The notes under the pieces are model-generated. The model worked only from the letters and a program-made list of their open reading frames with translations. It had not been told where the DNA came from and did no database searches. The position numbers and the translations under genes are program-made. Of a DNA stretch of 64,000 nucleotides, positions 9,426 to 25,704 are shown piece after piece. Position 1 is the first letter of the stretch. Each line of letters starts with the position of its first letter. The stretch comes from a bacterium (lineage in GTDB: Bacteria > Patescibacteriota > Patescibacteriia > Buchananbacterales > GWA2-38-13): the NCBI GenBank assembly GCA_030648715.1, contig JAUSGZ010000017.1:5108-69107 (forward strand), read 5' to 3'.

Positions 9426-10571
9426 ATGCGGGTTACTCACGTCATCAACGTTGCTGAAATCCCTGGTCGCCCCCTGTTCTCCGGATCGGAACAGCACGTC
9501 TTCGTATTGATGGCCGAGCAGCAGTCGCGCGGCCTGCAGGTTGAATTTGCTCCCCAGGTTTTCCGTGACGGCCCCAACTTGCAAAAAAAATTCTCGGAAC
9601 TGCAGGCGGCGGGGATAACGGTGGCCCCGACGCTCGTCAATGGCCCGTACCACTGGCAGACGAATCTGCGACTGCTGCCGCGACTCCTACCTTTCTTTCG
9701 CACGCGCCGCCAACGATTGATCCACACCCACCTTGACGGCGTGGACTACGCCGCGCGTTTTGCCGCTGGGCTTGCCGGATGCCGCCGGGTGATCAGCACG
9801 GTGCATAATAATGAACCCCACTACGCCCGGCGGCGGGAGCGGCTGCAGCTGCAATTCCTGGACCGCTGGAATGCGCGGTACATCGCCATTTCAGAATGTG
9901 TGCACCGCTACCTGGTCGACCGACTCGGACTCCCCCCAAAAAAAATCGTAACCATTTACTACGGATTACCGGCGCCTGCCGCCATCCTCACGCGAACAGA
10001 GGCGCGTCGCCGCCTCGGACTGGACCCGGATGACCCGCGATTCACCGTGGGTTTTATCGGACGCTTTGAACCGCAAAAAGATCCACACAGCCTACTGCGC
10101 GCCGCCGCGGAAATTCCCGAACTTCAACTGGTCATGGTCGGCGCCGGCAGTCTCGCCGTCGACCTTCTCCGCGACGCGCAAAGACTCCCCGACGGTCAGG
10201 TGCATTTCATCCCGTACCGGCCGGATGCTGCCGACTTGATACCGGCATTCGACCTACTCTGTCTTCCCTCGCGCTGGGAAGGTTTTGGCCTGGTGCTGCT
10301 GGAGGCCATGGTACGCAATGTACCGATTGCCGGCAGCACCGCAGGCGCGATCCCGGAGATCCTTGACCACGGTCGGTGCGGTCTCCTATTCGACCCATCC
10401 CAACCTTCAGCGCTGACCACGTGCCTTCGGTACGCCATGGCGCAACGCCAAGAATTGTCGCTCCTCGCGCAGCGGGCTGCGGCATGGGCCGAATCGCGCT
10501 TCACCACTGCCGCGATGGTGGAGCAGACTCTTACCGTTTATCGTGAAGTATCGGGGAAACAAAAATCGTAG
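9426..10571 (+). CDS. Glycosyltransferase family 4
   Basis: FIGRFEPQKDPHSLLRAAAE...SRWEGFGLVLLEAMVRNVPIAGSTAGAIPEILDHGRCGLLFDP. Confidence 0.85.
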   Translation: MRVTHVINVAEIPGRPLFSGSEQHVFVLMAEQQSRGLQVEFAPQVFRDGPNLQKKFSELQAAGITVAPTLVNGPYHWQTNLRLLPRLLPFFRTRRQRLIHTHLDGVDYAARFAAGLAGCRRVISTVHNNEPHYARRRERLQLQFLDRWNARYIAISECVHRYLVDRLGLPPKKIVTIYYGLPAPAAILTRTEARRRLGLDPDDPRFTVGFIGRFEPQKDPHSLLRAAAEIPELQLVMVGAGSLAVDLLRDAQRLPDGQVHFIPYRPDAADLIPAFDLLCLPSRWEGFGLVLLEAMVRNVPIAGSTAGAIPEILDHGRCGLLFDPSQPSALTTCLRYAMAQRQELSLLAQRAAAWAESRFTTAAMVEQTLTVYREVSGKQKS

Positions 10572-10572
10572 T

Positions 10573-11415
10573 ATGGCAAATCCGCTCATTTCCATCATTA
10601 TCCCGACCTACAACCGGCCGCAACAGGCCGTTGCAGCAGTCCAAAGTTTTCTCCGTCAAACCTACCAGCGCTTCGAGGTGATCGTCGTGAATGATGGCGG
10701 CACCCAAGAGGTCGGGCCGGCGGTGAGCGCGCTGGACGATCCGCGTATCCGCTTCGTCTCAAAACTGAACGGCGGTTTAGCCTCGGCCCGCAACTACGGA
10801 TTGCGGCTCGCGCAAGGTGAATTCGTCACCTTCTGTGATGATGACGACGACGTGTACCCGCAGCGCCTCGAGTTGCATCTCGCGCACGTCGAGGCCGCCG
10901 GCGCGGCGATTTCCTTCTGCAACGCCCACATCGTGACCGGCCGCCGGACCCGGCTATTTTTCGGCCACGCGCCCCAACCCTCCTTCACCGGCCTCTTCTG
11001 CCGCCGCAATCCGCCCGTTCACGCCTTCCTGGTTGCGCGCGAGTGTATTGAACGTGCCGGCGGTTTTAACGAACGTTTGCGCGTCTGCGAAGACTATGAT
11101 CTGTGGCTGCGGCTGCTGCCGCGGTACCGTTTTGACTATTTCCACCTGCCGCTGGTCCGGTATGTACGGCATCCCGGCGCGATGAGCAACGACTTGCCGA
11201 CGATGTCGCGCGAGATTTGCCGCCTGGCGGAAAATTACGTCCGTGTCCATACGGCAGAACTGCCCCCGGAATTCCTACAAAAATTCCGACGCCTGATGCT
11301 CCTGCGCCAGGGCAAGCGGCAATTGCGGGAACACGATTTCCTCGGCAGCCTGATGACGGCGTATGAGTGGCTGACCGCCGCCTGGTCGCGTCCCCGTACG
11401 CCAAACGCATCCTGA
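10573..11415 (+). CDS. Glycosyltransferase family 2
   Basis: MANPLISIIIPTYNRPQQAVAAVQSFLRQTYQRFEVIVVNDGGT...DDDDVYPQRLE (DxD). The start was trimmed to MANPL. Confidence 0.85.
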   Translation: MANPLISIIIPTYNRPQQAVAAVQSFLRQTYQRFEVIVVNDGGTQEVGPAVSALDDPRIRFVSKLNGGLASARNYGLRLAQGEFVTFCDDDDDVYPQRLELHLAHVEAAGAAISFCNAHIVTGRRTRLFFGHAPQPSFTGLFCRRNPPVHAFLVARECIERAGGFNERLRVCEDYDLWLRLLPRYRFDYFHLPLVRYVRHPGAMSNDLPTMSREICRLAENYVRVHTAELPPEFLQKFRRLMLLRQGKRQLREHDFLGSLMTAYEWLTAAWSRPRTPNAS

Positions 11416-11417
11416 CC

Positions 11418-12587
11418 ATGCAACGAACCCCCCAACCGCTCCATGTCCTCCATATCGTCGAGGCAACACTGACGGGCACGCGACGGCACGTGACCGACCT
11501 GGTGTTGCAGGCAACCCCGGCCGTGCAGCCAACGCTGATATTTTCCAGAGTACGTGCCGACCGCGAATTTACAAACTCGCTGGCAGCAATCCAAGCGCGC
11601 GGGATTCCGCTGGTCGAGGTACCGATGTATCGGGTCTTCAAACCGTTCCAAAACTTCCGAGCTGGCCTGCAAATTTGCGCCCACATCGCCCGCACGCGTC
11701 CGCACATCGTCCACACCCACGGCGCGATCGCCGGCATTATCGGCCGCTGGGCGGCACACCGTGCGCGTGTTCCCGTTATCGTCCACACCCCGAATGCCTG
11801 GCCGTTCCTCGCGACCGGTGAGTGGCTGCTGCGGAGTCTGTACCGCGGGCTAGAGCGCTGGACGGCGCGCTGGTCGGACGCCATTATCTGCGTCTCCGAC
11901 CACGAACGACGGCTCGGCCTCACCTACCGCATCGCGCCGCCGGAAAGACTTATCCTCATTCCCAACGGCACGGATCTGACGGCAATCCACGGCGACCGAA
12001 CAGCGGCCCGCACGCTCCTGGGTCTGCCGTCCGATGCGCTGGTCTTTGGCAGCGTGACCCGTTTTGCCCCCCAGAAAGACCCCCTCGGCCTGATCTCCGC
12101 GCTGCAACCGCTCACCGCTCGCTTCCCGCGCTTCCACCTGGTGATGGTCGGCGAAGGACCGCTCCTTGCCGCCGCTACAAAATTCGTGACGCGCCACCAT
12201 GTAGAGCGGCAGATCCACCTCACCGGATTTAGAACTGATGCGACCGCGCTGCTCTTTGGTTTCGACGCGTTCCTCCTCTCCTCGCGCTATGAGGGGCTTG
12301 CGTACGGCGTGCTGGAGGCGATGGCCGCCGGACTCCCCATCATCACCACCGCCGGCGGCAATGAGCAGGCCGTACGCCACGGAGTGAACGGCCTGGTGGT
12401 ACCCGTGGACGACCAGGTGGCGTTGCAAACAGCGGTCACGACCCTGCTGCAGGACCACCACCTGCGCCAGTCCTTCGGACAACAGAGCCGAGTTCGGGTA
12501 CAGCAGTTCACCGTTGATGGCATGGTCGGAAAGACGGAAGCGCTCTATCGGCGATTAGTGGAAGAGAAAGGACTTCTGCTAGAGTAA
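11418..12587 (+). CDS. Glycosyltransferase family 4
   Basis: HVLHIVEATLTGTRRHV...GSVTRFAPQKDPLGLISA...SSRYEGLAYGVLEAMAAGLPIITTAGGNEQAVRHGVNGLVV. The start was trimmed to the ATG at 11418. Confidence 0.85.
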   Translation: MQRTPQPLHVLHIVEATLTGTRRHVTDLVLQATPAVQPTLIFSRVRADREFTNSLAAIQARGIPLVEVPMYRVFKPFQNFRAGLQICAHIARTRPHIVHTHGAIAGIIGRWAAHRARVPVIVHTPNAWPFLATGEWLLRSLYRGLERWTARWSDAIICVSDHERRLGLTYRIAPPERLILIPNGTDLTAIHGDRTAARTLLGLPSDALVFGSVTRFAPQKDPLGLISALQPLTARFPRFHLVMVGEGPLLAAATKFVTRHHVERQIHLTGFRTDATALLFGFDAFLLSSRYEGLAYGVLEAMAAGLPIITTAGGNEQAVRHGVNGLVVPVDDQVALQTAVTTLLQDHHLRQSFGQQSRVRVQQFTVDGMVGKTEALYRRLVEEKGLLLE

Positions 12588-12593
12588 GCGGGT

Positions 12594-13937
12594 ATGATGT
12601 GGCTTTTGATCGCGAGCGACATCCTCATGCTTCAGGCGAGTTTTTGGCTGGCCTATGCGGCGCGCACCGGCACGTTCTTCGCTACTACGCTGGAAGTACT
12701 GCCGCCCATGGCGGTATATCTGGCTGCCTTGCCCTGGTCGGCCGCGCTCCTCGTGGCGATCTTTTACGTCCGCGGGCTCTACTGGCCGGCCCGCCGGCTC
12801 ACACCCGCGGTCGAGGCCTACGAAGTGGTCAAGGGAGTGACCGCGTGGGCGCTGCTGGTGATGTCGGGTTCCTATCTGGTGAAATTCGATTACTCGCGCA
12901 TCGTCGTCCTTGCGACCTGGCTGCTGGCCGTGGTCCTGGTGACCGGAGGACGCTGGATCTCCAGCCGCATCATCAGCGTACTTGCCCGCCGCGGCGTGGG
13001 TGCGCTCAACGTCCTGATCATCGGTTCGGGGAAACCGGCCCGCATCATTGCCCAACAGCTTCAGCCGTACGCTCGTCTCGGCTATCGCCTCGTGGGCTGT
13101 GTCGGGGACGGTGGAATCAACGGATTGCCATGCCTCGGTACCGCCGACGACGTACCGCGCCTGATCAACGCTCATAGTATCCGACAAGTCTACGTGGCGG
13201 AACCCGCGCTCTCGTACGACGCCATCCTGACCATGGTCTACACCTGTCCGTCCAAGAACGTCCAATTCCGCATCGCCGCAAATATCTTCCCCCGCTTCCA
13301 CGCTCCCCGCTCGCTGACCGAACTCGAGGGCTTCCCGTCACTGGATGTGCGGCGCGCGGAACCCGCGCTCTGGTACCGGGCCGCCAAGCGCCTCCTGGAT
13401 ATCCTTTTGAGCGGTTTCCTGCTGATGTTCAGCCTGCCGCTCTGGGGACTGATCGTGCTTTTTATCCGCCGCGATTCCTCAGGCCCCGCGCTCCTCACGC
13501 AGCCGCGCGTCGGCTACCGCGGACGGCGTTTCATCCTCTATAAATTCCGCTCCATGGTTGCCGCTACCGAACGCGACGCGACGCCACCCTCCAGCTTGCA
13601 GGATTCCCGCATCACCAATGTGGGCCGATTTCTGCGGCGCACCAGCCTGGACGAGCTGCCGCAATTGCTCAACATTCTCCGCGGCGACATGAGCCTGGTC
13701 GGCCCGCGTCCGGAACTGGAATCGCTCGCCGCGCGCTACCAGGGATGGCAGCTGCGCCGATTCGACGCCAAGCCGGGGCTGACCGGGCTGTGGCAGATCC
13801 TGGGACGCAAAGATCTCAGCCTGGAACAAAAACTGGAATACGATTTCTATTACGTCAACAATCAATCTCTGCTCCTCGATCTGATGATCATGGTCCGGAC
13901 CATCCCCCAGATCATTTTCGGCAAGGGTGCGTATTAA
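12594..13937 (+). CDS. Undecaprenyl-phosphate sugar phosphotransferase (WbaP/exopolysaccharide priming glycosyltransferase family)
   Basis: N-terminal TM helices, then the bacterial sugar transferase domain [57 protein letters not shown]...[22 protein letters not shown]. Confidence 0.9.
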
Positions 13938-13938
13938 T

Positions 13939-15816
13939 ATGACCCTGCTGCGCACGGACAAAGTGGTTGCCGCCGGCACGCTGGCCGCGGTGCTGCTGGC
14001 GGCAGGCTTGGGCTGGAACAGCCGCGAACCGTGGGGAATGCTTCTGATCTCCGGCACGGTCCTCACGCTGGTGCTTTCCAGCCTGGCCGCCAAAAAACGG
14101 TCGGCGGCACAGCCATTCCCTGCCCCCCTGCTGCTGTTTGCCCTGGCGACCGCCATTGCCACGGCGACCTCAAGCTACGTGTATGGCTCGCTACTGGCCG
14201 CCCTGCCCATCCTCACCGGTATCGCGGCATTTTACCTTGGCCAGCAACATTTCCATTCGGTGCGGCGCCAACAGTGGCTGGCCGCAACGGTGGTTATCAC
14301 CGGGGTGGTCCTTGCGGTGGATGGGTTGCGCCGCGTCCCCGGCCTTGACAACCCCGAGCTTGGCATCGCGTCGGTGTTCCTGTGGAAAAACGCCTACGCC
14401 GGATGGCTGGCGATGACCTTGCCCATCGCCGTAGGGCTGGTTGCTGCCAGCCGCCGCCCGCTCCTTTTTTGGCTGAACATTGGCGGCTTGAGCACCATTG
14501 CCGCGGCGCTGTTCTTCACTTCGTCACAAGCGGGATGGCTGGCCGCAGGCGCGGGTATTGGTCTGGTGATCGCGGCATCGGCATGGCAACACCGGAGCGT
14601 TCCCAGGCGAGCGCTGCTGAGCCTCCTGATCGCCGGACTGGGAAGTGCCGCCATCATCGGCGTGCTGTGGCGGCTGCAAACGGACGGCATTGGGCCGCAG
14701 GGCAGCCCGGCAGCGCTCTCCCGCGTGGCCGGGTTCATCCCCGAGTCCACCAGCACCCGCCAGAACTACTGGAAAACAACGCTTGAGATGATCGCCGACT
14801 ACCCCTGGTACGGCGTTGGTCCGGGCAACTTCACCGCCTGGTACCCCCACTACTTCAAACAACCATGGCTGTACACTATCAGCCCGCATAATGTCGCCTT
14901 GCTTTATGCGGCGACGCTGGGCGTGCCCGCCACGATCTTCCTGCTCATGTTCTTAGGCCAACTTTTTTGGCGTACGCTCCGAGGCTGGCAACAGCAGTGC
15001 CGCGTCAACCAGGAAAAAGATTCTTGTGCGTGGACAGTGGTTTGGACCGGGAGCGCGCTGACCGGCATCGCGCATGCACTGCTGGACTTGACCTTTGAAG
15101 TGCCGGCAATCCTCCTGCTGTGGTGGCTGTTGCTCGGCCTGCTACACGGCAGCCAGGCACCGGAGGGAGCAGCAGTGCGTACCTCCAAGGTTGTTCGCGC
15201 AAGTCTGGCCAGTGTTGCCACCGCAACGCTGGTCCTGGTTTTTGTGCTGCTGATCGCCGACAACGCCTACCGCCAGGCGGTGGTGCTGACCGGCGCGAAC
15301 GCGGCACAACGCCTCTCCTTGCTGCAACGTTCCCTGTCTCTAATGCCGCTAGCAGCACCGGCGCACGAGGCCATCGCCCAACACTACTGGGAAATGGTGA
15401 CCGCCCACAACGGCGACCGCGGCGCCAACTTACGGGCCATGGTTGCCGCTGCGCGACGAGCGGCGGAACTTGAACCCGCCTCTGCACACCGACAGTGGTT
15501 CCTCGGCTACGCGTACTACCTGGGACAGACACCCGAACATGCCTACTGGCCGTTCATTATTGACCATCTCACCCGTGCTATCGCCTACGATTTTCACGAC
15601 CCGACGTACTATCGGACGCTGGCGGAAGTCTACCTGCGTCTTGGGTGGCCACAGCAGGCACGCGCGACGATCACCACGGTACTGGATCTGTACTCCGAAC
15701 AAGAGCTTTCCCGCATCACCTTCGGCGGGGTCATCTACGAGCAACTCGGCCTCCGGGAACGGCTGGAAGCACTGCGCGGGTTGCTGCGCTACACCGAACT
15801 TCCCGCGCGGAAGTGA
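13939..15816 (+). CDS. O-antigen ligase (Wzy_C/WaaL) family polytopic membrane protein with C-terminal TPR-like repeats; candidate O-oligosaccharyltransferase or polymerase
   Basis: Multiple TM helices and a large loop with the ligase-like YPWYGVGPGNFTAWYPHYF. The C-terminal ~200 aa are helical repeats (TPR-like). The start was set to MTLLRT at 13939. Confidence 0.75.
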   Translation: MTLLRTDKVVAAGTLAAVLLAAGLGWNSREPWGMLLISGTVLTLVLSSLAAKKRSAAQPFPAPLLLFALATAIATATSSYVYGSLLAALPILTGIAAFYLGQQHFHSVRRQQWLAATVVITGVVLAVDGLRRVPGLDNPELGIASVFLWKNAYAGWLAMTLPIAVGLVAASRRPLLFWLNIGGLSTIAAALFFTSSQAGWLAAGAGIGLVIAASAWQHRSVPRRALLSLLIAGLGSAAIIGVLWRLQTDGIGPQGSPAALSRVAGFIPESTSTRQNYWKTTLEMIADYPWYGVGPGNFTAWYPHYFKQPWLYTISPHNVALLYAATLGVPATIFLLMFLGQLFWRTLRGWQQQCRVNQEKDSCAWTVVWTGSALTGIAHALLDLTFEVPAILLLWWLLLGLLHGSQAPEGAAVRTSKVVRASLASVATATLVLVFVLLIADNAYRQAVVLTGANAAQRLSLLQRSLSLMPLAAPAHEAIAQHYWEMVTAHNGDRGANLRAMVAAARRAAELEPASAHRQWFLGYAYYLGQTPEHAYWPFIIDHLTRAIAYDFHDPTYYRTLAEVYLRLGWPQQARATITTVLDLYSEQELSRITFGGVIYEQLGLRERLEALRGLLRYTELPARK

Positions 15817-15888: not shown

Positions 15889-16398
15889 TTAGTGTGCGCA
15901 GCTTGGGCCAACTCCGGCTTCGGTACCGCACAGCAATCCGACACCCAGCTGGCCGGCGCCGACTTCCAGTCGGAAATGGATCTCGTAACGTTCGCCGCTC
16001 AAACGCGCGTACGAATAATTGCACGGGGTGCCAAAGGTCGCGCACGGCCGGTTGTGGTTGGGCACATCCGACGTGCTGGCGGGATCGCGGGGAGCCAACC
16101 CCATGTAGACCGGATTGGCGCAGGTGGTGTCCACTTCCCAGCCAAGGGCGCCGAGGCATCCGATGCCGTTCGTTGGGTTGCCGATCTCGCCGTCGGCCAG
16201 CGTCGGAGGGAAATCAACACTCGTGTTGAAGTACACTTCCAGCGCCTTGCGCAGCTGGGCGACATCACCGGAACGAATGGCATCGCGGGCTTTGGAACGG
16301 GCATTCCCGTACGCGATGAGCACCAGGGTCGACAGCAACCCGATGATGGCAATAACCACCAGCATCTCGATCAGCGTAAATCCGGTCCGTCGAATCAT
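15889..16398 (-). CDS. pilA: Type IV pilin (prepilin-type N-terminal cleavage/methylation domain)
   Basis: MIRRTGFTLIEMLVVIAIIGLLSTLVLIA carries the G|FTLIE class III signal. The C-terminal globular domain has several Cys. Trimmed to the ATG at 16396..16398. Confidence 0.85.
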   Translation of the reverse strand: MIRRTGFTLIEMLVVIAIIGLLSTLVLIAYGNARSKARDAIRSGDVAQLRKALEVYFNTSVDFPPTLADGEIGNPTNGIGCLGALGWEVDTTCANPVYMGLAPRDPASTSDVPNHNRPCATFGTPCNYSYARLSGERYEIHFRLEVGAGQLGVGLLCGTEAGVGPSCAH

Positions 16399-16470
16399 GG
16401 TATTGGTAACATCTCCAGTATAACAGACTGCTCCCCTAGACGAAAACCGGCTGTGCACAGCAGCCCAACG

Positions 16471-16500
16471 AAAATTCCCGCTCTTGCGAGCGGGAATTTT
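16471..16500 (-). terminator. Rho-independent terminator downstream of pilin 2
   Basis: aaaattcccgctcttgcgagcgggaatttt: an 8-9-bp GC stem. On the transcribed (minus) strand it is followed by a T-run. Confidence 0.45.
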
Positions 16501-16526
16501 TCTCCCGATACTAGAGTCCCAATTAC

Positions 16527-17054
16527 TTAGTGGGAGCAGCTCCCGCCAGTGCCGGCTTCGGTCGCGCAGTTCAACCCGCTGTTCAGGCCACCGGTATTCG
16601 CCTCAAGGCGGAAGTGGATCTCATACCCGTTGGCGGTCCCGGTGCCGACGTTGATCTGGTCGTAGGAGTAGTTGCACGGCAACGCCCCTTCCGTTTCGCA
16701 GGGGTTATCGCTCCCCGGGTTGGAGGCGGTGTTGCTCGGATCGCGCGGCGTCAACCCCATGTAGATCGGAGCGGCGCAGGACGTATCCAGCTCCCAGCCG
16801 AGGTCGCCCAGACAACCTTGCCCGTTGGTGGGGTTGCCAATCTCGCCGTCGCCGGATTCCGGCGCGTAGGCGCCCTTGTCGTTGAAGTAGATCTCGAGTG
16901 CCGTTTGCAGCTGCTTCATGTCGGACACGCGCTTGGAGTCCCGAGCCTTCTGCCGGGCGGAGTTAAGGGCCACCACGGCGAGGGTTGACAGCAGACCAAT
17001 GATCGCGATCACGACCAACAGCTCAATTAACGTAAAACCTTTTCTGGTCTTCAT
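16527..17054 (-). CDS. pilA: Type IV pilin paralog
   Basis: MKTRKGFTLIELLVVIAIIGLLSTLAVVAL. It shares the internal GEIGNPTNGxGCLGxLGWExDTxCAxPxYMGLxPRDP block and the C-terminal YEIHFRLE...TEAG.G.SC.H block with the adjacent pilin. Confidence 0.85.
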   Translation of the reverse strand: MKTRKGFTLIELLVVIAIIGLLSTLAVVALNSARQKARDSKRVSDMKQLQTALEIYFNDKGAYAPESGDGEIGNPTNGQGCLGDLGWELDTSCAAPIYMGLTPRDPSNTASNPGSDNPCETEGALPCNYSYDQINVGTGTANGYEIHFRLEANTGGLNSGLNCATEAGTGGSCSH

Positions 17055-17258
17055 TGTGTCACCCCCTTTCCTTATAGAATTGACAGCGGAAATATTGTTT
17101 CCGCGTGCCTCGTGGTAGACGCTGAGCGTTGTCCGTACCACATCGGCTACGCTCAGTATAGCCGATTTCCAGTCCTTAGGTAAACCGTAAAGTTATCAAC
17201 AGTCACCCGGTACTGCTTGACTCAGTATAGCAAAAAAATGAGATAACAGCAATGAAAA

Positions 17259-18464
17259 TCAAATATTTTCGGACAGCTGATACAAGGGCAGGATGACGGC
17301 GGCGACCATCAGCCCGACCGCAATACCCATCATGCCGATCACCAACGGTTCAATGAGAGAAACGAGGTTCCGCACCACATTATCGATCTCGCGGGTATAA
17401 AAATTGGTCATTTTCTCCAACACGTGGTCCAGGCGTCCGGTCTTCTCGCCAACGTTCAGCATCTGCGCCACCATGAACGGCACGACCGAGGAGTGCAAAA
17501 ACACCGACGCGATGGGGTTGCCATCCTCCACCTCGCGGATGGTATCGGTAATGACCTTGCGGTAGACCTCGTTGCCGACCACATCCGCGGTAATGGCCAG
17601 CGCCTGGGGCAGGTTCACGCCGCCGACGATCAGCGTGTGCAGGCTGCGGGAAAACCGCACCAGCGCGATCTTCTGGAACAGCTTGCCGAATATCGGGACG
17701 TGCAATTTCACGGTATCCCACGTGCGGCGCCCTTCCTTGGTCCGGATGAGAAAAAAAAGTCCGATCCCTCCTGCGATGCCGCCGAGGAGCAAGAGCAGCC
17801 AGTAGTTGGAAAGAAAATCGCTGACCCAGATCAGCAAGCGCGTGGAAATGGGCAGCTCGGCTCCGCTCTCTTGCAGGATGGTGGTGATCTTCGGCACCAC
17901 GAACGTCATCATCATGAACCCGACAATGACCAGGCCGCTCAAAATGAACACGGGATAGATCATCGCGCCCCGGATACGGCTGGTCAGGTCGTAATCTTTC
18001 TCCAATTGGTTGGCCAGATACTCGAGTACTTCATCGAGTTTGCCCGACGTTTCGCCTGAACGGATGATGTTGACGTAGAACGCGTCGAACACCCGCTTGT
18101 GTTTCGCGAGGGCCACGGAAAACTTCGTGCCCGCCTCCACATCGTCGGCAACCTCGGAGACGATGACCTTGAGGTGCCGGTTCGGGGTTTGCGTGATAAG
18201 AATACGCAAACTCTGCACCAAGGGAACGTTCGCCGACACCAACACCGCCAACTGCCGCGAGAATACCACGACGTCGCGGATGGACACGCGCTTGAGCACG
18301 TCCAACGACTTCCCCAGGATGGAGGAAGATACCTCGTGCAGGTACACGATGGTCAACCCCCGCTCCCGCAGACTGTCGGCGGCCAGATCCTCCGTGGCCG
18401 CCTGTACCAGGCCGCTGACAGTCACATTCTCGGCAGTCTTGGCTTTGTAGGCGTATTCAGGCAC
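17259..18464 (-). CDS. pilC: Type IV pilus inner-membrane platform protein PilC (GspF family)
   Basis: 401 aa with two T2SSF repeats and 3 TM segments (MIYPVFILSGLVIVGFMMM...; IEPLVIGMMGIAVGLMVAAVILPLYQL). GTG start. Confidence 0.9.
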   Translation of the reverse strand: MPEYAYKAKTAENVTVSGLVQAATEDLAADSLRERGLTIVYLHEVSSSILGKSLDVLKRVSIRDVVVFSRQLAVLVSANVPLVQSLRILITQTPNRHLKVIVSEVADDVEAGTKFSVALAKHKRVFDAFYVNIIRSGETSGKLDEVLEYLANQLEKDYDLTSRIRGAMIYPVFILSGLVIVGFMMMTFVVPKITTILQESGAELPISTRLLIWVSDFLSNYWLLLLLGGIAGGIGLFFLIRTKEGRRTWDTVKLHVPIFGKLFQKIALVRFSRSLHTLIVGGVNLPQALAITADVVGNEVYRKVITDTIREVEDGNPIASVFLHSSVVPFMVAQMLNVGEKTGRLDHVLEKMTNFYTREIDNVVRNLVSLIEPLVIGMMGIAVGLMVAAVILPLYQLSENI

Positions 18465-18577: not shown

Positions 18578-19657
18578 CTATCCGTACCCGCGCGTCATCA
18601 TTTTCAGGTGTTCGGGGTCAACCGCCTCCGCCAATGCCTGCGGCTGCGCCACGATCCCGGCCTTGACCAGCGCCGCCAGCGACTGGTCCAGGCTCACCAT
18701 CCCCTCCTGTTGCGACGTCTGCAGCACCGATTGCAGCTGCGGGAACCGACCCTCGCGCAACAACGAATGGGTGGCTGATGTCAGGGTCAGGATCTCCATC
18801 GCCGCGACCCGGCCGCCGTCCATGCGCGGCAACAAACGCTGGCAGATGACCGCACCCAGGCTTTCCGCGAGTTGCTCTTGTGCCTGCCCGCGGACGTCCT
18901 GGGGGAACGTGGAAACGAGCCGTTCAATGGCCTGCACGGCGGTCACCGCGTTCATCGTCACATACACCAGCCGGCCGAACGCCGCCAGCTCCACGGCCGC
19001 CCGCAGCACGCCCGGCTCATCCGTTTCCCCCACCAACACCACGGTTACGTCCTCCTGCCCGCATTCCTCGAGCGCCTGACGGAACGTCGGCACGTCGCGC
19101 CCGACCTCGCGCTGGACCACGATGCTCTTGGCGTTCGTGATCAGGTACTCGATCGGCTGTTCGACGGTGAGGATGTTCTCGGACCTCCGCTGGTTGATCT
19201 GCTCCACCATCGCCGCCGCAGTCGTCGAGCGACCGGAATTGTACGGCCCGCAGGCCACGATCAGCCCGCGCTTGCGGTCCACTAGCTGCCCGATGAATGC
19301 CGGCAACCCCAGCTGATCAAGGTTGGGCACGGTCGTGGAGATCAGACGCCAGGTGAACGCCAGCCCACCCTTCTGATAGAACGCGGTTATCCGCACCCGC
19401 AGCTTCCCCTCATAGAGATAGATGAACCGGACGGAACGGTGCTGCTCCAGCGTTTCCCGCTGCATGGGATCAAGCAGTTCGTCGCGGAGCGCCTCCAAAA
19501 AATCCTTGGTCAGCACCGACGCATCGGTCACTTCGATCAACCCCGTATCCAGCCGCAGCACCGGCAGACTGCCGGCCAGCAGGTGGATATCGGAAGCCTG
19601 GCGCTTGGCGGCGGTAGCCAGGATCTTCCCGACCTCAAGATGGACTGCGGTATTCAT
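18578..19657 (-). CDS. pilT: PilT-family twitching-motility ATPase homolog with degenerate catalytic motifs
   Basis: PilT-like length and N-terminus (DIHLLAGSLPVLRLDTGLI), but Walker A reads GPYNSGRSTT (canonical GPTGSGKSTT) and the His box reads TMNAVTA (canonical TLHTNSA). The Walker B/Asp-box region VVLVGETDE is retained. Confidence 0.8.
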   Translation of the reverse strand: MNTAVHLEVGKILATAAKRQASDIHLLAGSLPVLRLDTGLIEVTDASVLTKDFLEALRDELLDPMQRETLEQHRSVRFIYLYEGKLRVRITAFYQKGGLAFTWRLISTTVPNLDQLGLPAFIGQLVDRKRGLIVACGPYNSGRSTTAAAMVEQINQRRSENILTVEQPIEYLITNAKSIVVQREVGRDVPTFRQALEECGQEDVTVVLVGETDEPGVLRAAVELAAFGRLVYVTMNAVTAVQAIERLVSTFPQDVRGQAQEQLAESLGAVICQRLLPRMDGGRVAAMEILTLTSATHSLLREGRFPQLQSVLQTSQQEGMVSLDQSLAALVKAGIVAQPQALAEAVDPEHLKMMTRGYG

Positions 19658-20037
19658 TGTGGTACAAGCGCCTTAATTTTCTTGACGACCTCCGATGGCA
19701 TGAAGTGCGCCTTGATCAGGTAGTCGGCCGCGCCCAGGTCGAGCCCGCGCTTGACCTCGTCCTTCTGGCTCAAGTTCGTCAGGAGAATGACCGGGATATC
19801 CTTGGTGGCCGCGCCCTCCTTGAGTCCCTTGAGCACCTCGAAGCCGTCGAGTTTCGGCAGAATGATATCCAGCAGCACCAGCGCCGGTTGCTTGTCCTGG
19901 GCGAGTTTTAGCCCTTTCTTCCCGTCGGCCGCGGACAGCACCTCGAACCCCTCCAAGTTCAGCTTCGTCGCATAGAGCTCGGCGAGGAATTCATCGTCTT
20001 CGACCAGGAGGATCACTTTCTTCGCGGATGTGGACAT
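19654..20037 (-). CDS. Single-domain response regulator (CheY-like receiver)
   Basis: KKVILLVEDDEFLAELY...LVLLDIILPKLDGFEVLK...KDIPVILLTNLSQKD...GAADYLIK. The phospho-acceptor Asp and conserved Lys are present. ATGA overlap with the pilT start. Confidence 0.85.
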   Translation of the reverse strand: MSTSAKKVILLVEDDEFLAELYATKLNLEGFEVLSAADGKKGLKLAQDKQPALVLLDIILPKLDGFEVLKGLKEGAATKDIPVILLTNLSQKDEVKRGLDLGAADYLIKAHFMPSEVVKKIKALVPQ

Positions 20038-20054: not shown

Positions 20055-21785
20055 TTAGAGTTTGGTCACGCGGTACACCTCTTCGAGCGTGGTTTTCCCG
20101 GACAGCACCTTCAGCAAGCCGTCCAGACGCAAGGTGATGTACTTTTGCTTCGCCAGGGCGATAGTAACCTCGCGCGGATGAAACCCCGAGGTAATGAGCT
20201 CTTGGAGTTCGGGGGTGAATTCGATGGCTTCAACGACCGCCACTCGGCCTTGATACCCGGAATTCGCGCACCGCGTGCAACCCTTTCCCTTCGTGAATGA
20301 CAGCTTCTCATGCGACACTCCCTTGGGCCAGTATTCGTCGGGAATCGCCACAATTTCCGCTTTGATCGCCGCCACCGTTGCCGCGGGCACCTCAACCGGC
20401 TTGGCACAGTACCCGCAGATACGTCGCGCCAAACGCTGCGCCATTACGACGTTCACCGTCGAGGCGAGCAGGAACGGCTCAACCCCCATATCCATCAGGC
20501 GCGGAACCGCACCGACAGCGTCGTTCGTGTGCAGGGTCGAAAGCACCAGGTGGCCGGTGAGGCTGGCGTGAATCACGAGCTCGGCCGATTCCTGGTCGCG
20601 GATCTCGCCGAGCATGATGATATTCGGGTCCTGGCGCAAAATGCTGCGCAATCCCGACGCGAACGTGTAGCCCACCTCCGGATTGATCTGCGACTGGTTC
20701 ACTCCCTCCACGTAGTACTCCACGGGGTCTTCCAGGGTAATAATATTCACGCCCTCCTTATTCAGCATGGTCAGGATAGTGTAGAGCGTGGTTGTTTTCC
20801 CTGAACCGGTCGGGCCGGTCATCAGCAGCAACCCGTTGGGCTTGGCAATACCGCGGGAAATGATCGCAATATGCGGCGCGGAAAACCCCAGGTCCTCCAG
20901 CGTCGGAACCTTCAGCGAGACATCCAGCACGCGCATCACTACCTTTTCCCCCTCGAACAGCGGCAAGGTGGAGACGCGGAAGTCGATCTCGCGCCCTTCA
21001 ATGGTCAGGCGGATGCGGCCGTCCTGGGGTTTGCGGGTCTCATCGAGCTTGAGGTTCGCCAACACCTTGATGCGGGCGACGATCGCCGAATGAATGTAGC
21101 GCGGGAGCCGCAGGCTGGTGCGCAGAATGCCGTCAATGCGGTAACGGACGCGCGTTTCATGCGGCTCGGGCTCGATATGGATGTCGGAAGCGCGGCCGTC
21201 GATAGCGTGCCGGATGATGACGAGCACCATCTTGGACACCGGCGCCGATTTCACGACCTCCTGCAGATCTTTTTCCGTCACGCGCGTATCCAGCTCCGTC
21301 ACCTGTTCGTTGACGCCCGCCAGCGCCTCCTCGGCCTCCTTGCTGAGTTCGCCGTACTGCCGGGAGGTTTGACGCCAGCCCGTTCCCGAGATCATGAAGT
21401 AGCGCGCCGTAAACCCGCTCTCCTGGGCAAGGAAATCAACGGCCTCGATCGCTTTAAAATTCTGCGGATCGACCATCGCGACCTTGACTTCGTTGCCCTC
21501 GCGGTCAAAGGCGATCATCTGGTAGTTCTCGGCCGCGGACGCGGGGATCGTATTGAGCACGTTGGGGGCAATGACCTTGCCGGTCAGGTCAATATAGGGC
21601 ACACCCAGCATCGCCGCCTTCACCTGGGTCAGCGTTTCCTCATCCATCAACCCCTCCTTCACGATCTGCCGCTCAAGCGCGACGGGGTCGGCGCCGGCCT
21701 GCTGCAATAAGGCGTCCGCCTGCTGGGCGGAGATGGTATTGCGTTCCTGGAGCGCGGTGATCAGCAGTTTTACATCGATCGGCAT
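20055..21785 (-). CDS. pilB: Type IV pilus assembly ATPase PilB (GspE family)
   Basis: Walker A LMTGPTGSGKTTTLYTIL, Asp box, His box LSTLHTNDAVGAVPRL, and a C-terminal CxxC...CxxC Zn motif (CGYCAK...CTRCANSGY). Trimmed to MPIDVKLL (ATG at 21783..21785). Confidence 0.9.
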   Translation of the reverse strand: MPIDVKLLITALQERNTISAQQADALLQQAGADPVALERQIVKEGLMDEETLTQVKAAMLGVPYIDLTGKVIAPNVLNTIPASAAENYQMIAFDREGNEVKVAMVDPQNFKAIEAVDFLAQESGFTARYFMISGTGWRQTSRQYGELSKEAEEALAGVNEQVTELDTRVTEKDLQEVVKSAPVSKMVLVIIRHAIDGRASDIHIEPEPHETRVRYRIDGILRTSLRLPRYIHSAIVARIKVLANLKLDETRKPQDGRIRLTIEGREIDFRVSTLPLFEGEKVVMRVLDVSLKVPTLEDLGFSAPHIAIISRGIAKPNGLLLMTGPTGSGKTTTLYTILTMLNKEGVNIITLEDPVEYYVEGVNQSQINPEVGYTFASGLRSILRQDPNIIMLGEIRDQESAELVIHASLTGHLVLSTLHTNDAVGAVPRLMDMGVEPFLLASTVNVVMAQRLARRICGYCAKPVEVPAATVAAIKAEIVAIPDEYWPKGVSHEKLSFTKGKGCTRCANSGYQGRVAVVEAIEFTPELQELITSGFHPREVTIALAKQKYITLRLDGLLKVLSGKTTLEEVYRVTKL

Positions 21786-21801: not shown

Positions 21802-22140
21802 TCATTGCGTCGTGGGGGTCGTGGTCCCAATGTAGGGCAGCGGTTCGAACGGATTGGTACGGCCGGTCGGCCCGGCCTCGACGGGCAACGGCACCACCTG
21901 TCGCAACTCGGTGAACTGCCGGCTGGTAAAGACCGGCGGTTCCGCATTGAATGCCGGCGGCGGCGGGTACTGCACTTGGGCGCTATCGGCAAACTCTTGC
22001 TGCCATTGGGTCGGGACCACGGCGGTATCGGTGTTCACCACGTTGGTATACAACAGCCAGCCGATCGTCACGATCGTCACTACCAGCACAAGGGTAAGGC
22101 TGATGAGTTTCCCGGGGCTTGTTCGGCGGGGGGCGAGCAT
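21802..22140 (-). CDS. Small single-pass membrane protein of the pilus operon (unknown function, Pro-rich periplasmic tail)
   Basis: MLAPRRTSPGKLISLTLVLVVTIVTIGWLLY, then a Pro-rich segment. It is tightly packed between pilO and pilB and has no prepilin motif. Confidence 0.4.
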   Translation of the reverse strand: MLAPRRTSPGKLISLTLVLVVTIVTIGWLLYTNVVNTDTAVVPTQWQQEFADSAQVQYPPPPAFNAEPPVFTSRQFTELRQVVPLPVEAGPTGRTNPFEPLPYIGTTTPTTQ

Positions 22141-22148
22141 AGTTGGTG

Positions 22149-22766
22149 CTAACGCGGCCAATAGTACGCCTGCATCGAAATGGAGAATACCGTATCGTCG
22201 CTGGCGGTAAAATTGATACTGATCACGTCGATCAGCCGGAGGTTGGATTCAAGGTTCGTCAGCAGCTGCTTGATCCTGCCGTAGTTGCCGCGGGAAACGC
22301 TCAAATCGATACGTACGGACCGCAGATCGGACAATGGCCGCGCTTCCGGCGGCACAGCTGCCTCGCCCGCGCCGCCACTGCTCGCAGCGTACTCGGTGAA
22401 TTGGACGCCATTCACCAGCAACCCGCTCTGCCGCGCGATCTCGGCGACCTGCACCAGCAGTCCGGGCAGGTCCGGCTCGGCGGGCAGCAACGACTTGAAT
22501 CGCTCGATCTGCGACAAATTGAAACGGCTTTTCCGCTCCTGCAGGGTGTGCAAGGCTTTCAGATGACCGTCCAAATAATCGGCCTGCGTCCTGGTCTGGA
22601 GCAGATTATAACGACGATGCGTGCGAATTTCCTCCCACCCTCCTTTGATGAACCACAGATACCCGCACACCAAGACGATCACCACGCTCAAAATAATGAG
22701 CTCAAGGTAAAAGCGGGAAAATACCTTGAACAGCTGGACGCGGATTTTCGGCCACGAAATGCTCAT
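22149..22766 (-). CDS. pilO: Type IV pilus assembly protein PilO
   Basis: N-terminal TM (LELIILSVVIVLVCGYLWFI), a coiled-coil segment and a C-terminal PilO-like domain (LPGLLVQVAEIARQSGLLV...ISMQAYYW). ATGA coupling with pilN. Confidence 0.7.
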   Translation of the reverse strand: MSISWPKIRVQLFKVFSRFYLELIILSVVIVLVCGYLWFIKGGWEEIRTHRRYNLLQTRTQADYLDGHLKALHTLQERKSRFNLSQIERFKSLLPAEPDLPGLLVQVAEIARQSGLLVNGVQFTEYAASSGGAGEAAVPPEARPLSDLRSVRIDLSVSRGNYGRIKQLLTNLESNLRLIDVISINFTASDDTVFSISMQAYYWPR

Positions 22767-24556
22767 GGGGCAAACTCCAAGGGCTCAAAGAATACTTCGG
22801 GGCGAAGTATCAACCCGACGGAAAAGTCCACCTGCAGGATCTGCTTGGTCACTGCGTCGGTGATGGCCGTCGCGCTGGAAATATCCGCCCGCTGGATGAC
22901 ATCAGCGGCCTGACGGAACGCGACGATCTGCCGCGCCACGCTGCGGTAGTCGCGGCCGTGCGCCGAGAGTGCCAGCGAACCGTCCGCGCCTGAAGCGAAT
23001 GTGGTGTAGTACACTTCGTCGATGGTGGTGCGCTCCAGCGCGGCAAGCGCCTTGGTCCAGTGGCGGTGCCGCTGCAGCAGATCTTCCAGCAATTTCACAT
23101 CGCGCTGGATCGCGGAGGCTTCGTCGACGAGACCGCGGTACTGGTCGATCTGTTCCACCAGGATCTTAATGCGCTGTTCTTCCCGCTCGATCTCATTGCC
23201 GATGAGATAATCGTACCAGCTGATGAGTTGGCTCATGGTCAGGACCACGAACACGCTGACGCCGATCGCCGACAGGTAGAGCAAGAACTTCCGCGATAAG
23301 TTCAATTCGGGGTGTCGGGCGTACTCTTCCGGGATCAGGTTGATCGCCAAAGTTTTTGTCGGACGCTCCACTGTTTTGCCAGGCTTGAGGGGAAGTTTGG
23401 GTGGTACCGGTTGCGGCGTGATCTTTGGAACAGGTACCGGCTGAAGTTTGGGAGCGGCCATCGCGGTTTTTGCCGGCGCTGGCGGCGGGACAGTCGTTGG
23501 CGGCAACATCGTCAGCCGAGGCGGGACCGGGGGAGCAGCCGGCGGCATCGGCTTTGGCGGCGGGGGTGGCACGGGTTTTACGGGCGGCAACGGCGCGAGC
23601 TTGGGCAGCGGCGGCAGTGACAATTTCACCGGTTTTGGCTTGCGGCGGAACAGCGACTTCAGCCATGCCCAAAACGTTCGCCGCGGCTTTTTTTGCAACG
23701 GCTGCTTTCCCGGCACGGACAACGGCCGCGGTGAAACGATCTTGACGGCGGGGACGGTCGGCTTGGGGGGCGGAGGCGGCGGAAGGAGCGGCTTGAGCTG
23801 TGGCAGCGTCGGCTTTACCGGCTTGGGAGGACGGGCAAACAACTGGAGCAGGCGCTGCCACAACGACTTTCTCGGCGGACGCGGCATCCGCGGCAACGCG
23901 GGACGGATAACGACCGGCGGTAGCACGGGAACTTTAACCTCCACGCGCGGCAGCAAAGGCGGCGGCAACGGCTGCGGCCTGACCGGCGGTACCGCGGGTG
24001 CCACCACGGGCCGGGTTAACGGCAAGGGCGGCCGCGTGAAAAACGATCTCAACCAGCCCCAAAAACCGCGGCGCGGTTTTTTGAACACCCCCACGGCCAC
24101 CCCGCGGCTCACGGATTTGCGCTGAGCGGCTTCCACCTCGCGCCTCACCGCCTCCGCCAGTTTTGCGACCTCGCGATCGTTCAGATGGTACGCACTCGGG
24201 CGCACGGACGGCGCGGCGGGCGAAACTCGCGGTGGCGCTGCCGGCCTGGCGGGCAGCGGCGGCAAGGTGGTAATGGCGGGTTTTGCCGCACCCCCACGCG
24301 GCACCACCACACGTTCCAGTCTTGGTAACGGCGTTGCGGGTAATGGCGGCAATAGTGGCTCGTTCGGGGGCAACGGCCCGGGCCGAGGGACGACCGGCCG
24401 GCCCATGCCGGCGCCCCCGTGCTGCAGCTTTGATCCTCCTGGACGGTCGGGGTTGGTCAGACGCATCTCCACCACCTTGGGCGTTTTGCTCAAACGCTTG
24501 CGCTCGGCCTCTTCCTGGCCGCGCAGTTCGTCAGGTAATAGGTTGATCTCAACCAT
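22763..24556 (-). CDS. pilN: PilN-like protein with ~410-aa proline-rich cytoplasmic N-terminal extension
   Basis: The C-terminal ~180 aa are a canonical PilN (INLIPEEY...TM helix LLYLSAIGVSVFVVLTM...coiled coil...periplasmic domain). The N-terminus begins with a second MVEINLLPDEL motif and is followed by ~400 aa of P/K/V-rich low complexity. Confidence 0.7.
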   Translation of the reverse strand: MVEINLLPDELRGQEEAERKRLSKTPKVVEMRLTNPDRPGGSKLQHGGAGMGRPVVPRPGPLPPNEPLLPPLPATPLPRLERVVVPRGGAAKPAITTLPPLPARPAAPPRVSPAAPSVRPSAYHLNDREVAKLAEAVRREVEAAQRKSVSRGVAVGVFKKPRRGFWGWLRSFFTRPPLPLTRPVVAPAVPPVRPQPLPPPLLPRVEVKVPVLPPVVIRPALPRMPRPPRKSLWQRLLQLFARPPKPVKPTLPQLKPLLPPPPPPKPTVPAVKIVSPRPLSVPGKQPLQKKPRRTFWAWLKSLFRRKPKPVKLSLPPLPKLAPLPPVKPVPPPPPKPMPPAAPPVPPRLTMLPPTTVPPPAPAKTAMAAPKLQPVPVPKITPQPVPPKLPLKPGKTVERPTKTLAINLIPEEYARHPELNLSRKFLLYLSAIGVSVFVVLTMSQLISWYDYLIGNEIEREEQRIKILVEQIDQYRGLVDEASAIQRDVKLLEDLLQRHRHWTKALAALERTTIDEVYYTTFASGADGSLALSAHGRDYRSVARQIVAFRQAADVIQRADISSATAITDAVTKQILQVDFSVGLILRPEVFFEPLEFAP

Positions 24557-24561
24557 GCTGC

Positions 24562-25704
24562 TTAGGAAATCTCTTTCATTCCCAGACCGATAGCGACGGA
24601 AAACCGCGGACCGATCTCATCCAGTGCCGGCTTCAGTTCCTCGGGACAGATGACGCGCGCCCACGGATCGCCCAAAAACACGCGGAGTTGCAGCAGATTC
24701 CCCAAGTATTGCGGAAGGTTCGCGAGCAGCGACGACCCGCCGGTGAGGATCACGCGCTCGATCGGCGGCCGGCCCTGGCTGCGGTAGAGGTTCAGGCTGT
24801 AGCGGATCTCATCGACCACCGGCGCCAGCGCCTGGACGATGGTCGTGGGGATGCTGCCCGCCGCGGTCCCCTGCTGCATGCCGATGTCGTATTTGAGTTG
24901 CTCGGCGCGGTCGAGCGAGACGTTGAGCGCCGTGGCGATTCCCCGGGTGATGGTCAGCCCGCCGACGTTGATGCTGCGGTTCAAGTACGGCACCCCGTTC
25001 TGGGCGATCATGATATTGGTCACGGTGAAATCCATATCCACCAGCATGACCGTCGCCGGGTCTGAACCGATCAAGCTGCGCACCAGCGAGAATGACTCGG
25101 TATCCAGCGCCAGCAGCGTCAACCCGGCCTCGCGGAACAGCGTCAAGTAGCGCCGCACGAGCGCTTTCGGCGCGGCCGTCAGCAGCACTCGGGTATTGCC
25201 CGCCTGCTTGCGATGTACCATCTTGCCGAAGAACCGCATGCCGTTGAACGACAGCTTCTCGGGGTCATTGGGGGTGTGTCCGCTGGCCTTGCCATCCGCC
25301 ACGGCGACCGGCGCATCGGTCGGCAGAATATCCCAATGCAGGTTCATTTCATCGATCGGCAGCGGAATGACCTTCTTGGCCTCCCAGCGCACGGCCGCGG
25401 CCAGCTCCTTGGCGGACAGTTCCGGCAACGTGATGACCGAAGAGAACACCGAAAATGCCGGCAGCGCGGAGATGGCCACGCGACTTCCCACTTTAGCCTT
25501 GCGCACCGTTTCACGGATCAAGCCAGCCGTCATCCGCAGGTCCTGTTCGCTGTCGTCCTTGGATTGGTAGTCCAATGGATGGTCAAAATAGCCGTACGTC
25601 AAGAGCCGCGGCCGGCCGCGGTCATTCTTCAGCTCAACGATTTTCACGCTGTGACTGTCGACGTCCACTCCCAGATAGCTGGTAGCAGCGGAAAAAAGAG
25701 CCAT
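24562..25704 (-). CDS. pilM: Type IV pilus assembly protein PilM (actin-like ATPase fold)
   Basis: SYLGVDVDSHSVKIVELK at the N-terminus and the PilM_2/FtsA-like fold. It is the first gene of the pilMNO-...-pilB-pilT-pilC operon. Confidence 0.85.
   Translation of the reverse strand: MALFSAATSYLGVDVDSHSVKIVELKNDRGRPRLLTYGYFDHPLDYQSKDDSEQDLRMTAGLIRETVRKAKVGSRVAISALPAFSVFSSVITLPELSAKELAAAVRWEAKKVIPLPIDEMNLHWDILPTDAPVAVADGKASGHTPNDPEKLSFNGMRFFGKMVHRKQAGNTRVLLTAAPKALVRRYLTLFREAGLTLLALDTESFSLVRSLIGSDPATVMLVDMDFTVTNIMIAQNGVPYLNRSINVGGLTITRGIATALNVSLDRAEQLKYDIGMQQGTAAGSIPTTIVQALAPVVDEIRYSLNLYRSQGRPPIERVILTGGSSLLANLPQYLGNLLQLRVFLGDPWARVICPEELKPALDEIGPRFSVAIGLGMKEIS

Follow-up and report, generated by a model that had tools for sequence, protein, structure and literature searches.

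A PilT-like protein with degenerate catalytic motifs and an adjoining response regulator in type IV pilus operons of Parcubacteria-type bacteria

Introduction

Among the surface machines of the candidate-phyla bacteria, type IV pili are the best conserved, and to them are ascribed DNA uptake and host-cell attachment, two processes that normally depend on pilus retraction, and genome papers on lineages related to the one considered here routinely label their PilT gene "PilT, retraction ATPase" (PMC11809585, PMC7143001). The subject of this analysis is a pilT-like gene, and the pilus operon around it, in a 64,000-nucleotide stretch of DNA from a member of the Buchananbacterales within the Patescibacteriota (assembly GCA_030648715.1, contig JAUSGZ010000017.1, positions 5,108 to 69,107). 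This whole stretch is referred to as the window, and coordinates are counted from its first letter. A first-pass annotation of the window had proposed that the product of this gene is probably inactive as an ATPase and may have a regulatory or structural role. If the protein cannot hydrolyze ATP, metabolic and lifestyle reconstructions are mislabeled for a large part of the Parcubacteria, and pilus retraction in these cells becomes a directly testable question. Neither a degenerate PilT nor the gene order pilB-response regulator-pilT was found to be described for the candidate phyla radiation (CPR)/Patescibacteria in the full-text literature, a search whose reach mostly does not extend to subscription journals, and the control or the retraction of pili in these bacteria probably follows a scheme that has yet to be described.

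The Pilus Locus and the PilT-Like Protein

The pilT-like gene (18578..19657, minus strand) is a single intact open reading frame (ORF) with an ATG start that encodes 359 residues, comprising an N2D domain (approximately residues 1-105) and a C-terminal domain, or CTD (approximately residues 110-359). It has pilB and pilC alongside, as is typical of a type IVa pilus (T4aP) locus, in an operon that reads pilM-N-O-x-pilB-RR-pilT*-pilC-pilins in the window, as it does in 61 related loci, where RR denotes a response regulator, x a small ORF and pilT* the gene in question. With 74.3 bits (cutoff 24.9) over residues 9-279 in Pfam PF00437 (T2SSE), the protein belongs to the PilT/VirB11-like secretion ATPase superfamily, and it matches the NCBIfam model of the PilT/PilU family, TIGR01420, over the full length of the model (3-342 of 343) with a score, 310.8 bits, that narrowly falls short of the curated cutoff of 319.1. 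NCBI names the window protein merely "ATPase, T2SS/T4P/T4SS family." NCBIfam has no dedicated model for the clade to which it belongs, at least one member of which (P0010) is named a PilT/PilU family ATPase.

Its closest relative of solved structure is the PilT of Aquifex (2ewv, E = 4e-69), followed by Thermus PilT2, Pseudomonas aeruginosa PilT and Geobacter PilT4, and its identity to canonical PilT is 34-37%. An AF2 model computed from 58 family sequences (pLDDT 94, pTM 0.89) superposes on the ATP-bound PilT4 of Geobacter metallireducens (6ojx) with a Foldseek TM score of 0.90, and scores of 0.87-0.90 to PilT4, PilT2 and the P. aeruginosa PilT indicate the N2D plus CTD arrangement of the family. 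Because this confident model fits PilT4 so closely, the complete two-domain PilT architecture can be regarded as preserved. The window protein thus resembles canonical PilT (TIGR01420, represented by Aquifex 2ewv, PilT4 6ojx and the PilT of the Saccharibacteria strain TM7x) in its length, its two-domain fold (TM 0.90), its slot between pilB and pilC, the frame of its P-loop and the Glu residues of its Asp box. It differs in carrying other residues in place of the Lys of Walker A, the Arg that follows Walker B, the two His and the Thr of the His box, and the Asp of the Asp box, and in a partly degraded AIRNLIRE segment, the motif that tells PilT from PilU. By comparison, Walker A and Walker B of the TM7x protein are reported to be well conserved (PMC11623550).

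Replacement of Catalytic and Interface Residues

In motors of this family, the Walker-A Lys binds the phosphates of ATP and the Glu that follows Walker B activates water (PMC5424180, PMC6858323, PMC6762196), a Glu of the Asp box is a Mg ligand and, in the His box, H420 touches the gamma-phosphate (PMC5424180). H230 is conserved in all family members and forms with T221 the contact that defines the closed subunit interface, and PilT function is abolished by E204A and by H229A (PMC6858323), while R206S is a natural loss-of-function allele (PMC6762196). The residue-by-residue alignment of the window protein to Aquifex PilT 2ewv bears on every one of these sites.

The Walker A motif (19220..19249, minus strand) reads GPYNSGRSTT where the canonical sequence is GPTGSGKSTT, with K143R, Tyr for Thr at its third position and Asn for Gly. 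The invariant Lys of GxxxxGK[ST] is therefore absent from GPYNSGRS, as the first-pass annotation had stated, and the codon of Arg143, CGC, is two changes away from a Lys codon. Replacement of the Walker-A Lys by Arg in ATPases of the RecA fold typically leaves nucleotide binding in place and cripples hydrolysis, RecA K72R being an example. At the Walker B region (19016..19051, minus strand), DVTVVLVGETDE stands against canonical DPDVIFVGEMRD: the Dh4GE pattern is represented by TVVLVGE, in which Gly210 and Glu211 are kept and the leading Asp is Thr, and the invariant Arg of GEMRD, equivalent to R206 of Vibrio cholerae PilT, is Asp213 in GETDE. It was this VVLVGETDE string that had earlier been described as the retained Asp and Glu boxes. 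The retention of Glu211 holds, but the string is Walker B with the catalytic Glu, and the true Asp box lies at 19145..19171 (minus strand, LTVEQPIEY), where TVEQPIE replaces canonical TIEDPIE. Here Glu166 and Glu170 of the E-D-P-x-E pattern are retained, including the Mg-binding one, and Asp167 is Gln.

The His box (18938..18976, minus strand) is GRLVYVTMNAVTA as opposed to GHLVFGTLHTNTA in Aquifex, with His229 replaced by Arg and His236 by Asn, which extends the single His substitution noted previously to both positions. One residue ahead of this span, Phe227 stands for the conserved Thr that is T221 of the G. metallireducens protein (PilT-Gm), and over the extended region, FGRLVYVTMNAVTA against canonical TGHLVFGTLHTNTA, both His and the leading Thr are gone. 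Hence the T221...H223...H230 set of PilT-Gm is represented by F227, R229 and N236. The equivalent of AIRNLIRE (18752..18775, minus strand) reads ATHSLLRE and is partly retained and partly degraded; the family consensus for this segment is A-V-[RK]-S-x-I-R-E, with Ser in place of Asn.

Selective Maintenance of the Gene

Substitutions at this many functional sites raise the possibility of a sequencing error, which had been named as an outcome that would refute the inactivity claim, of an assembly error, or of a pseudogene in decay. All of these can be dismissed with near certainty. An independent metagenome-assembled genome (MAG), that of Parcubacteria group bacterium Gr01-1014_31 (L011; assembly VMFR01), encodes the same protein with 96% amino acid identity and identical motifs. 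The ratio of nonsynonymous to synonymous divergence (dN/dS, Nei-Gojobori) of the pilT-like gene is 0.062 relative to L011, at an unsaturated dS of 0.32, and 0.10 relative to L010, in a similar range to the values for the adjoining genes (RR 0.06, pilB 0.034, pilC 0.024). In addition, the frame is intact and the length stays at ~357-359 residues across dozens of lineages, and the two-step CGC codon speaks against a base-calling slip. The pilT-like gene is under purifying selection. Its product evolves ~35% faster than PilB or PilC, which is consistent with partial relaxation.

The altered motifs are shared. In nine database clusters, 64-100% identical to the window protein, the sequence is GP[YF]NSGR[ST]TT and GR.V...x[ND] without exception, and because the substitutions recur in these close homologs, in 59 cluster representatives of a wider set and in 76 of 80 species-level loci, both described below, they are not due to chance.

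A Clade of Degenerate PilT-Like Proteins

A profile built from the close clade and two relatives at 40% identity was searched against 1.84 billion representative proteins, and the single-domain proteins of 330-386 residues among its top 150 matches were used for a tree and for column statistics. They fell into 59 sequences lacking both His residues of the His box, 32 canonical sequences and three mixed ones. In a midpoint-rooted neighbor-joining (NJ) tree, computed without support values, all degenerate sequences lie in one clade of 60 that contains no canonical member. The clade has its own conserved positions (Y94, G280, R316 and E318, among others) and its own synteny. To count as a member, a protein had to lack both His-box His residues, carry an aromatic residue at the third Walker-A position, be ~355-360 residues long and fall in the degenerate NJ clade, and the window protein (P0001) has all of these features.

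What the clade has kept and what it has lost are unevenly distributed over the active site. The P-loop frame is nearly invariant, with G137 at 100% in both degenerate and canonical sequences, G142 at 98% (canonical 100%) and the Ser/Thr at 144 at 97% (canonical 100%), and a positive charge persists at the Lys site, 143, which is R in 71% and K in 25% of the degenerate sequences (R or K 96%) compared with K in 97% of canonical ones. The Asp-box residues E166 and E170 are each present in 98% (canonical 100% for both), although the Asp between them remains in only 17%. The largest loss of conservation relative to canonical PilT is in the Walker-B tail and the His box: Gly210 is found in 34% of the degenerate sequences (canonical 100%), the catalytic Glu211 in 44% (94%), the interface Thr227 in 8% (100%), and Arg213, His229 and His236 in none (97%, 100%, and 100%, respectively), and several Arg and Gln positions (201, 246, 256-262) have lost conservation as well. 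From these statistics it follows that the clade has been released from constraint on the residues for hydrolysis and inter-subunit coupling, with a phosphate- and Mg-binding pocket still maintained by selection.

A separate feature of the clade is the aromatic residue at Walker-A position 3 (residue 139, 19241-19243 in the window), which is Tyr in 46% and Phe in 37% of degenerate sequences, compared with Thr in 81% of canonical PilT.

The distribution of the family was surveyed by a species scan, in which family-specific peptides taken from a 10-sequence alignment were compared with one genome per GTDB species. This gave 166 relatives. The best 80 (L011-L090), of which 76 are degenerate, come from the Parcubacteria group, Kerfeldbacteria, Buchananbacteria, Komeilibacteria and unclassified Patescibacteria MAGs. 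Many of the GTDB MAG records that carry the Patescibacteria-type operon (L013, L021, L023, L024, L027, L028 and others) are titled "uncultured Gammaproteobacteria bacterium," and these titles are probably mislabeled. In one lineage, the pilT-like gene and pilC are separated by an inserted gene whose product is a 23S rRNA intervening-sequence protein (PF05635; L006, 11105-11458; L007, 1524-1877).

The scan also brought up a second degenerate sub-family, with the signature GSFGSGKTTT ... SEL ... GRLVIANLEAD, in which the Walker-A Lys is present and both His are absent. It was found at 14 loci, exemplified by positions 6001-8142 of L020 (the Kerfeldbacteria MKparc4 chromosome, CP181398.1), the others being L026, L028, L034, L038, L043, L044, L050, L056, L057, L059, L061, L071 and L083. 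In these the gene and an orphan pilM make up a cassette of two genes, flanked by pth and mfd/dprA, and no pilB, RR gene, pilN/O or pilC is nearby. The pairing hints at PilM as a direct partner.

Could the window protein nevertheless still drive retraction, using an altered catalytic set that consists of a P-loop Arg and of Glu211 acting as base, with the RR merely tuning its activity? Its fold is intact, its gene occupies the pilT slot, and the window's own sub-clade retains the VGE of Walker B (G210, E211), the Walker-A Ser/Thr, both Glu of the Asp box and the N2D arginines; moreover, the same RR stands beside catalytically intact PilT in three metagenome loci (L106, L116 and L160). Such a motor would, however, have to function with K143R, D167Q, R213D, H229R and H236N, plus T227F, all at once, although PilT function is already lost on a single change at a site equivalent to E204, H229 or R206 (PMC6858323; PMC6762196). 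The catalytic Glu is also dispensable across the clade, being kept in 44% of its members, which argues that hydrolysis is not the function under selection. A working motor is therefore considered unlikely. The proposal that the protein lacks catalytic activity and serves a regulatory or structural purpose gains support from the low dN/dS, the relaxed catalytic columns, the retained P-loop frame and the intact fold, and the clade as a whole is probably one of pseudo-ATPases derived from PilT. The likeness to "non-catalytic PilU/PilT2" that had been suggested along with it does not hold, since PilU needs its own Walker A and Walker B to work (PMC6762196). The term paralog, used there as well, presupposes another, canonical pilT, and the window contains none.

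A Dedicated Response Regulator

The strongest clue to function is a gene that the first-pass annotation did not mention. Between pilB and the pilT-like gene, at 19654..20037 on the minus strand, lies a stand-alone CheY-like receiver of 127 residues (PF00072, 81.8 bits), the stop codon of which overlaps the start of the pilT-like gene by 4 nt (ATGA). No other protein of the operon is as conserved as this RR. In 64 distinct orthologs its receiver residues, namely the acidic pair D14 and D15, the phospho-acceptor D57, T87, the aromatic switch residue Y106 and K109, are conserved at 95-100% (D14, D15, D57 and K109 at 100%, T87 at 95%), and the face usually used for output bears the family signature DYLIKAHFxPxEV. 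Because the phospho-acceptor residues are invariant across orthologs, the RR can be regarded as a genuine phospho-switch.

The association of the RR with the degenerate gene is close. In most loci the junction between them ranges from the 4-nt overlap to a spacer of up to ~10 nt, by which the two are translationally coupled, and pilB, the RR gene and the pilT-like gene are contiguous and co-oriented in every locus. The order pilM-pilN-pilO-small ORF-pilB-RR-pilT*-pilC-pilin also recurs in relatives at 74%, 64%, 41%, and 40% identity. As a control, a separate scan was made with canonical CPR-type PilT, calling the state of the His box from the alignment. All 61 degenerate loci with pilB just upstream have the RR between pilB and the gene, so that the degenerate genes are always preceded by a receiver, as opposed to three of 47 canonical operons, the other 44 having none (Fisher p = 4e-27, a value that ignores kinship).

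The three metagenome loci mentioned above (L106, L116, and L160) share with the degenerate operons the order pilB-RR-pilT-pilC and the same RR signature (KYLIKAHYTPSEVV), and differ in that their PilT has an intact Walker-A Lys, GEMRD and both His (GHLVFATLHT), in combination with an odd Walker A, GP(T/S)S(Q/H)GKS. The partnership of RR and PilT may predate the loss of catalytic residues, and these loci may represent the state before that loss. Their PilT proteins were also considered as the closest canonical relatives of the degenerate clade, and this was rejected, as with ~33% identity they are indistinguishable from other canonical sequences.

Receivers that lack a DNA-binding output domain and are linked to PilB/PilT function are known from DrdR of Xanthomonas, PilG/PilH of Pseudomonas and PixG/PixH of Synechocystis (PMC13507683; PMC11656802; PMC11181946), and DrdR makes physical contact with PilB and PilT (PMC13507683). 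Those regulators are encoded away from the motor genes, are parts of chemosensory systems and have motors with active catalysis as their targets, whereas the RR of the window is a single receiver wedged between pilB and the gene of a putative pseudo-ATPase, with no kinase gene recognized in the 64 kb.

Proposed Role as a Gate on the Pilus Platform

A protein in the pilT operon slot that has the PilT fold, is under purifying selection, belongs to a clade with relaxed catalytic residues and is coupled to an RR is what any reading of this locus has to accommodate. The reading toward which the evidence tips, if not by much, is that of a nucleotide-binding, non-hydrolyzing ring derived from PilT that acts with the RR to gate the PilB/PilC/PilM platform, and that belongs to an old clade, maintained by selection, of Parcubacteria-type Patescibacteria. 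The mechanism is put forward with moderate confidence. The pilT-like protein would bind Mg-nucleotide, with hydrolysis that is nil or very slow, and would form a ring like that of PilT, vying with PilB for docking on the PilC/PilM platform and acting as a clutch or gate and not as a motor. Ring and phospho-switch together would set when PilB is engaged, for extension, and when it is displaced, after which the fiber would be held or would disassemble without a dedicated motor.

These steps are plausible because each has a precedent. ATPase-dead PilT is still functional as a scaffold or bridge (PMC6762196; bioRxiv 2025.10.30.685630), a regulator consisting only of a receiver (REC) domain binds PilB and PilT directly (PMC13507683), extension of the MSHA pilus requires PilT (PMC9815625), and motor-independent retraction is reported for the competence pili of V. 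cholerae (bioRxiv 2021.03.09.434644). More distant parallels come from other type IV filament systems. TadZ/CpaE of Tad pili, which has a receiver-like domain, and FlaH of the archaellum are non-hydrolyzing or deviant nucleotide-binding proteins that organize or regulate a filament motor. TadZ is, however, MinD/ParA-like and FlaH is KaiC/RecA-like, and as neither is a homolog of PilT their likeness to the pseudo-PilT is functional only.

The precedent nearest to the window protein is ATPase-dead PilT of V. cholerae (K136A/E204A, and R206S of strain MO10), a non-hydrolyzing PilT ring that is important by occupying the machine; the equivalent of R206 is lost in the window protein too. The V. cholerae proteins differ in being laboratory alleles, or a single-strain variant, of an active enzyme, and in depending on PilU, whereas the type seen in the window is ancient and clade-wide, has no PilU-like gene nearby and has an RR attached. 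The degenerate clade is in effect a natural and evolutionarily stabilized counterpart of the laboratory alleles, with a built-in RR partner, and could reveal roles of the PilT ring apart from ATP hydrolysis.

The V. cholerae example also provides another explanation, in which the window protein is a passive adaptor joining the pilus machine to a second motor, active and of the PilT/PilU type, whose gene is located elsewhere in the genome. Walker A and Walker B mutants of V. cholerae PilT retain PilU-driven retraction, and PilU fails without PilT (PMC6762196), and the degenerate proteins do retain the fold and many surface positions. A tblastn search with the pilT-like protein and PilB, however, recovered no second T2SSE ATPase in the 64-kb window besides PilB itself, and none was seen within 6-10 kb of the operon in ~80 related loci. 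The genomes of Patescibacteria are small (~1 Mb), and proteobacterial pilU usually adjoins pilT. On the evidence of the window and of these flanks, a passive adaptor is rated as improbable.

Several observations weigh against the gating ring. Monophyly of the degenerate clade depends on a midpoint-rooted NJ tree, in which fast-evolving sequences may attract one another (long-branch attraction), and the statistic for the RR association is not corrected for phylogeny. A Pfam search of 30 further ORFs gave no histidine kinase in the 64-kb window, and no fusion of REC to PilT occurs among the long matches of the representative search, their N-terminal extensions being MshEN or unannotated. The presence of the same RR beside catalytically intact PilT in L106, L116 and L160 means that the RR needs no dead partner. 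Walker-A Arg, together with the Glu211 and Gly210 retained in the window's sub-clade, could allow slow hydrolysis, and formation of a ring, its docking on PilC/PilM and its contact with the RR are all inferred. Finally, a mirror-tree comparison of the RR with the pilT-like protein, PilB and PilC gave no specific signal between RR and pilT-like protein, the distances of the RR following those of PilB slightly better (partial r of 0.26 vs. 0.07).

The last of these results is in the direction expected if the pilT-like protein were a helper of PilB, loading or activating it for extension in place of antagonizing it, with the RR coupling extension to a signal. The requirement for PilT in MSHA pilus extension (PMC9815625) and the contiguity and common orientation of the three genes in every locus are likewise in its favor. 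The mirror-tree signal is weak, though, and the basis of the proposal is indirect, and in the second degenerate sub-family the partner gene is an orphan pilM, with no pilB in the vicinity; a PilB helper is accordingly rated as very improbable.

The gating ring can be taken further, to the whole radiation. On this wider and distinctly doubtful proposal, an ATP-binding, non-hydrolyzing PilT ring under a dedicated phospho-switch would have taken the place of the retraction motor throughout a radiation of the Patescibacteria that has the rank of a class, in genomes that would encode neither a catalytic PilT nor a catalytic PilU. The pili would then retract, and thereby serve DNA uptake and host contact, either without a motor or by means of a bidirectional PilB, with the pseudo-PilT/RR pair as the clutch that chooses the direction. 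If true, this would represent an undescribed regulatory logic for type IV pili.

Other Genes of the Operon and the Window

Upstream of the RR gene, pilB (20055..21785, minus strand) encodes a canonical extension ATPase (PF00437, 417 bits, plus MshEN; TIGR02538, 530 bits). The ORF extends to 21992 and the likely start is the ATG at 21785, giving 576 residues, the length of its homologs. All of its motifs are intact (GPTGSGKTTT, GEIRD and GHLVLSTLHTND), which bears out the earlier description of this PilB as canonical. It is preceded by a small membrane ORF (21802..22161, minus strand) that has no Pfam or NCBIfam match and no assigned function; an ORF of this kind (92-119 residues) is always present between pilO and pilB in the operons inspected, degenerate and canonical CPR alike. 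The PilO-like gene (22149..22766, minus strand) is assigned by position, a faint PF04350 match being found in the orthologs of L002 and L004 and none in the window copy. The gene in the pilN position (22763..24556, minus strand), recognized from its translation and its conserved place after pilM, has a long Pro-rich N-terminal region: of its 597 residues, ~350 form a low-complexity stretch ahead of the membrane and C-terminal part, and its counterpart in the canonical CPR operon L009 has 246 residues. The first gene of the operon encodes the actin-like platform protein PilM (24562..25704, minus strand; TIGR01175, 164 bits against a cutoff of 133). Downstream of the pilT-like gene are the platform protein PilC (17259..18464, minus strand; PF00482, 202 bits in two stretches, with matches to PilC/GspF models) and two prepilin genes (16527-17141 and 15889-16458, together 15889..17141, minus strand), which have the N-terminal motif GFTLIE and TIGR02532 matches.

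Farther along the same contig are genes for RadA (42445-43818), RecG (43831-45933) and a ComFC-like protein (48868-49608), consistent with a role in DNA uptake, and for a VirB4/TraG-like P-loop ATPase (50201-52168). Two giant ORFs on the minus strand, at 27839-36427 (2862 residues) and 56007-63998 (at least 2663 residues, running off the end of the window), possibly encode surface proteins; the gene at the matching position by the pilus operon in L001 encodes 3076 residues with Beta_helix/NosD matches. The region to the left of the operon (1-15816) is taken up by a long block of genes for glycosyltransferases and methyltransferases that is syntenic in L001. It includes an initiating sugar transferase (12594-13937, with Bac_transf/CoA_binding_3 matches on the L001 counterpart) and a Wzy_C-like polymerase or ligase (13927-15816), and glycosylation of the pilin or of the cell surface is a possible function of this block.

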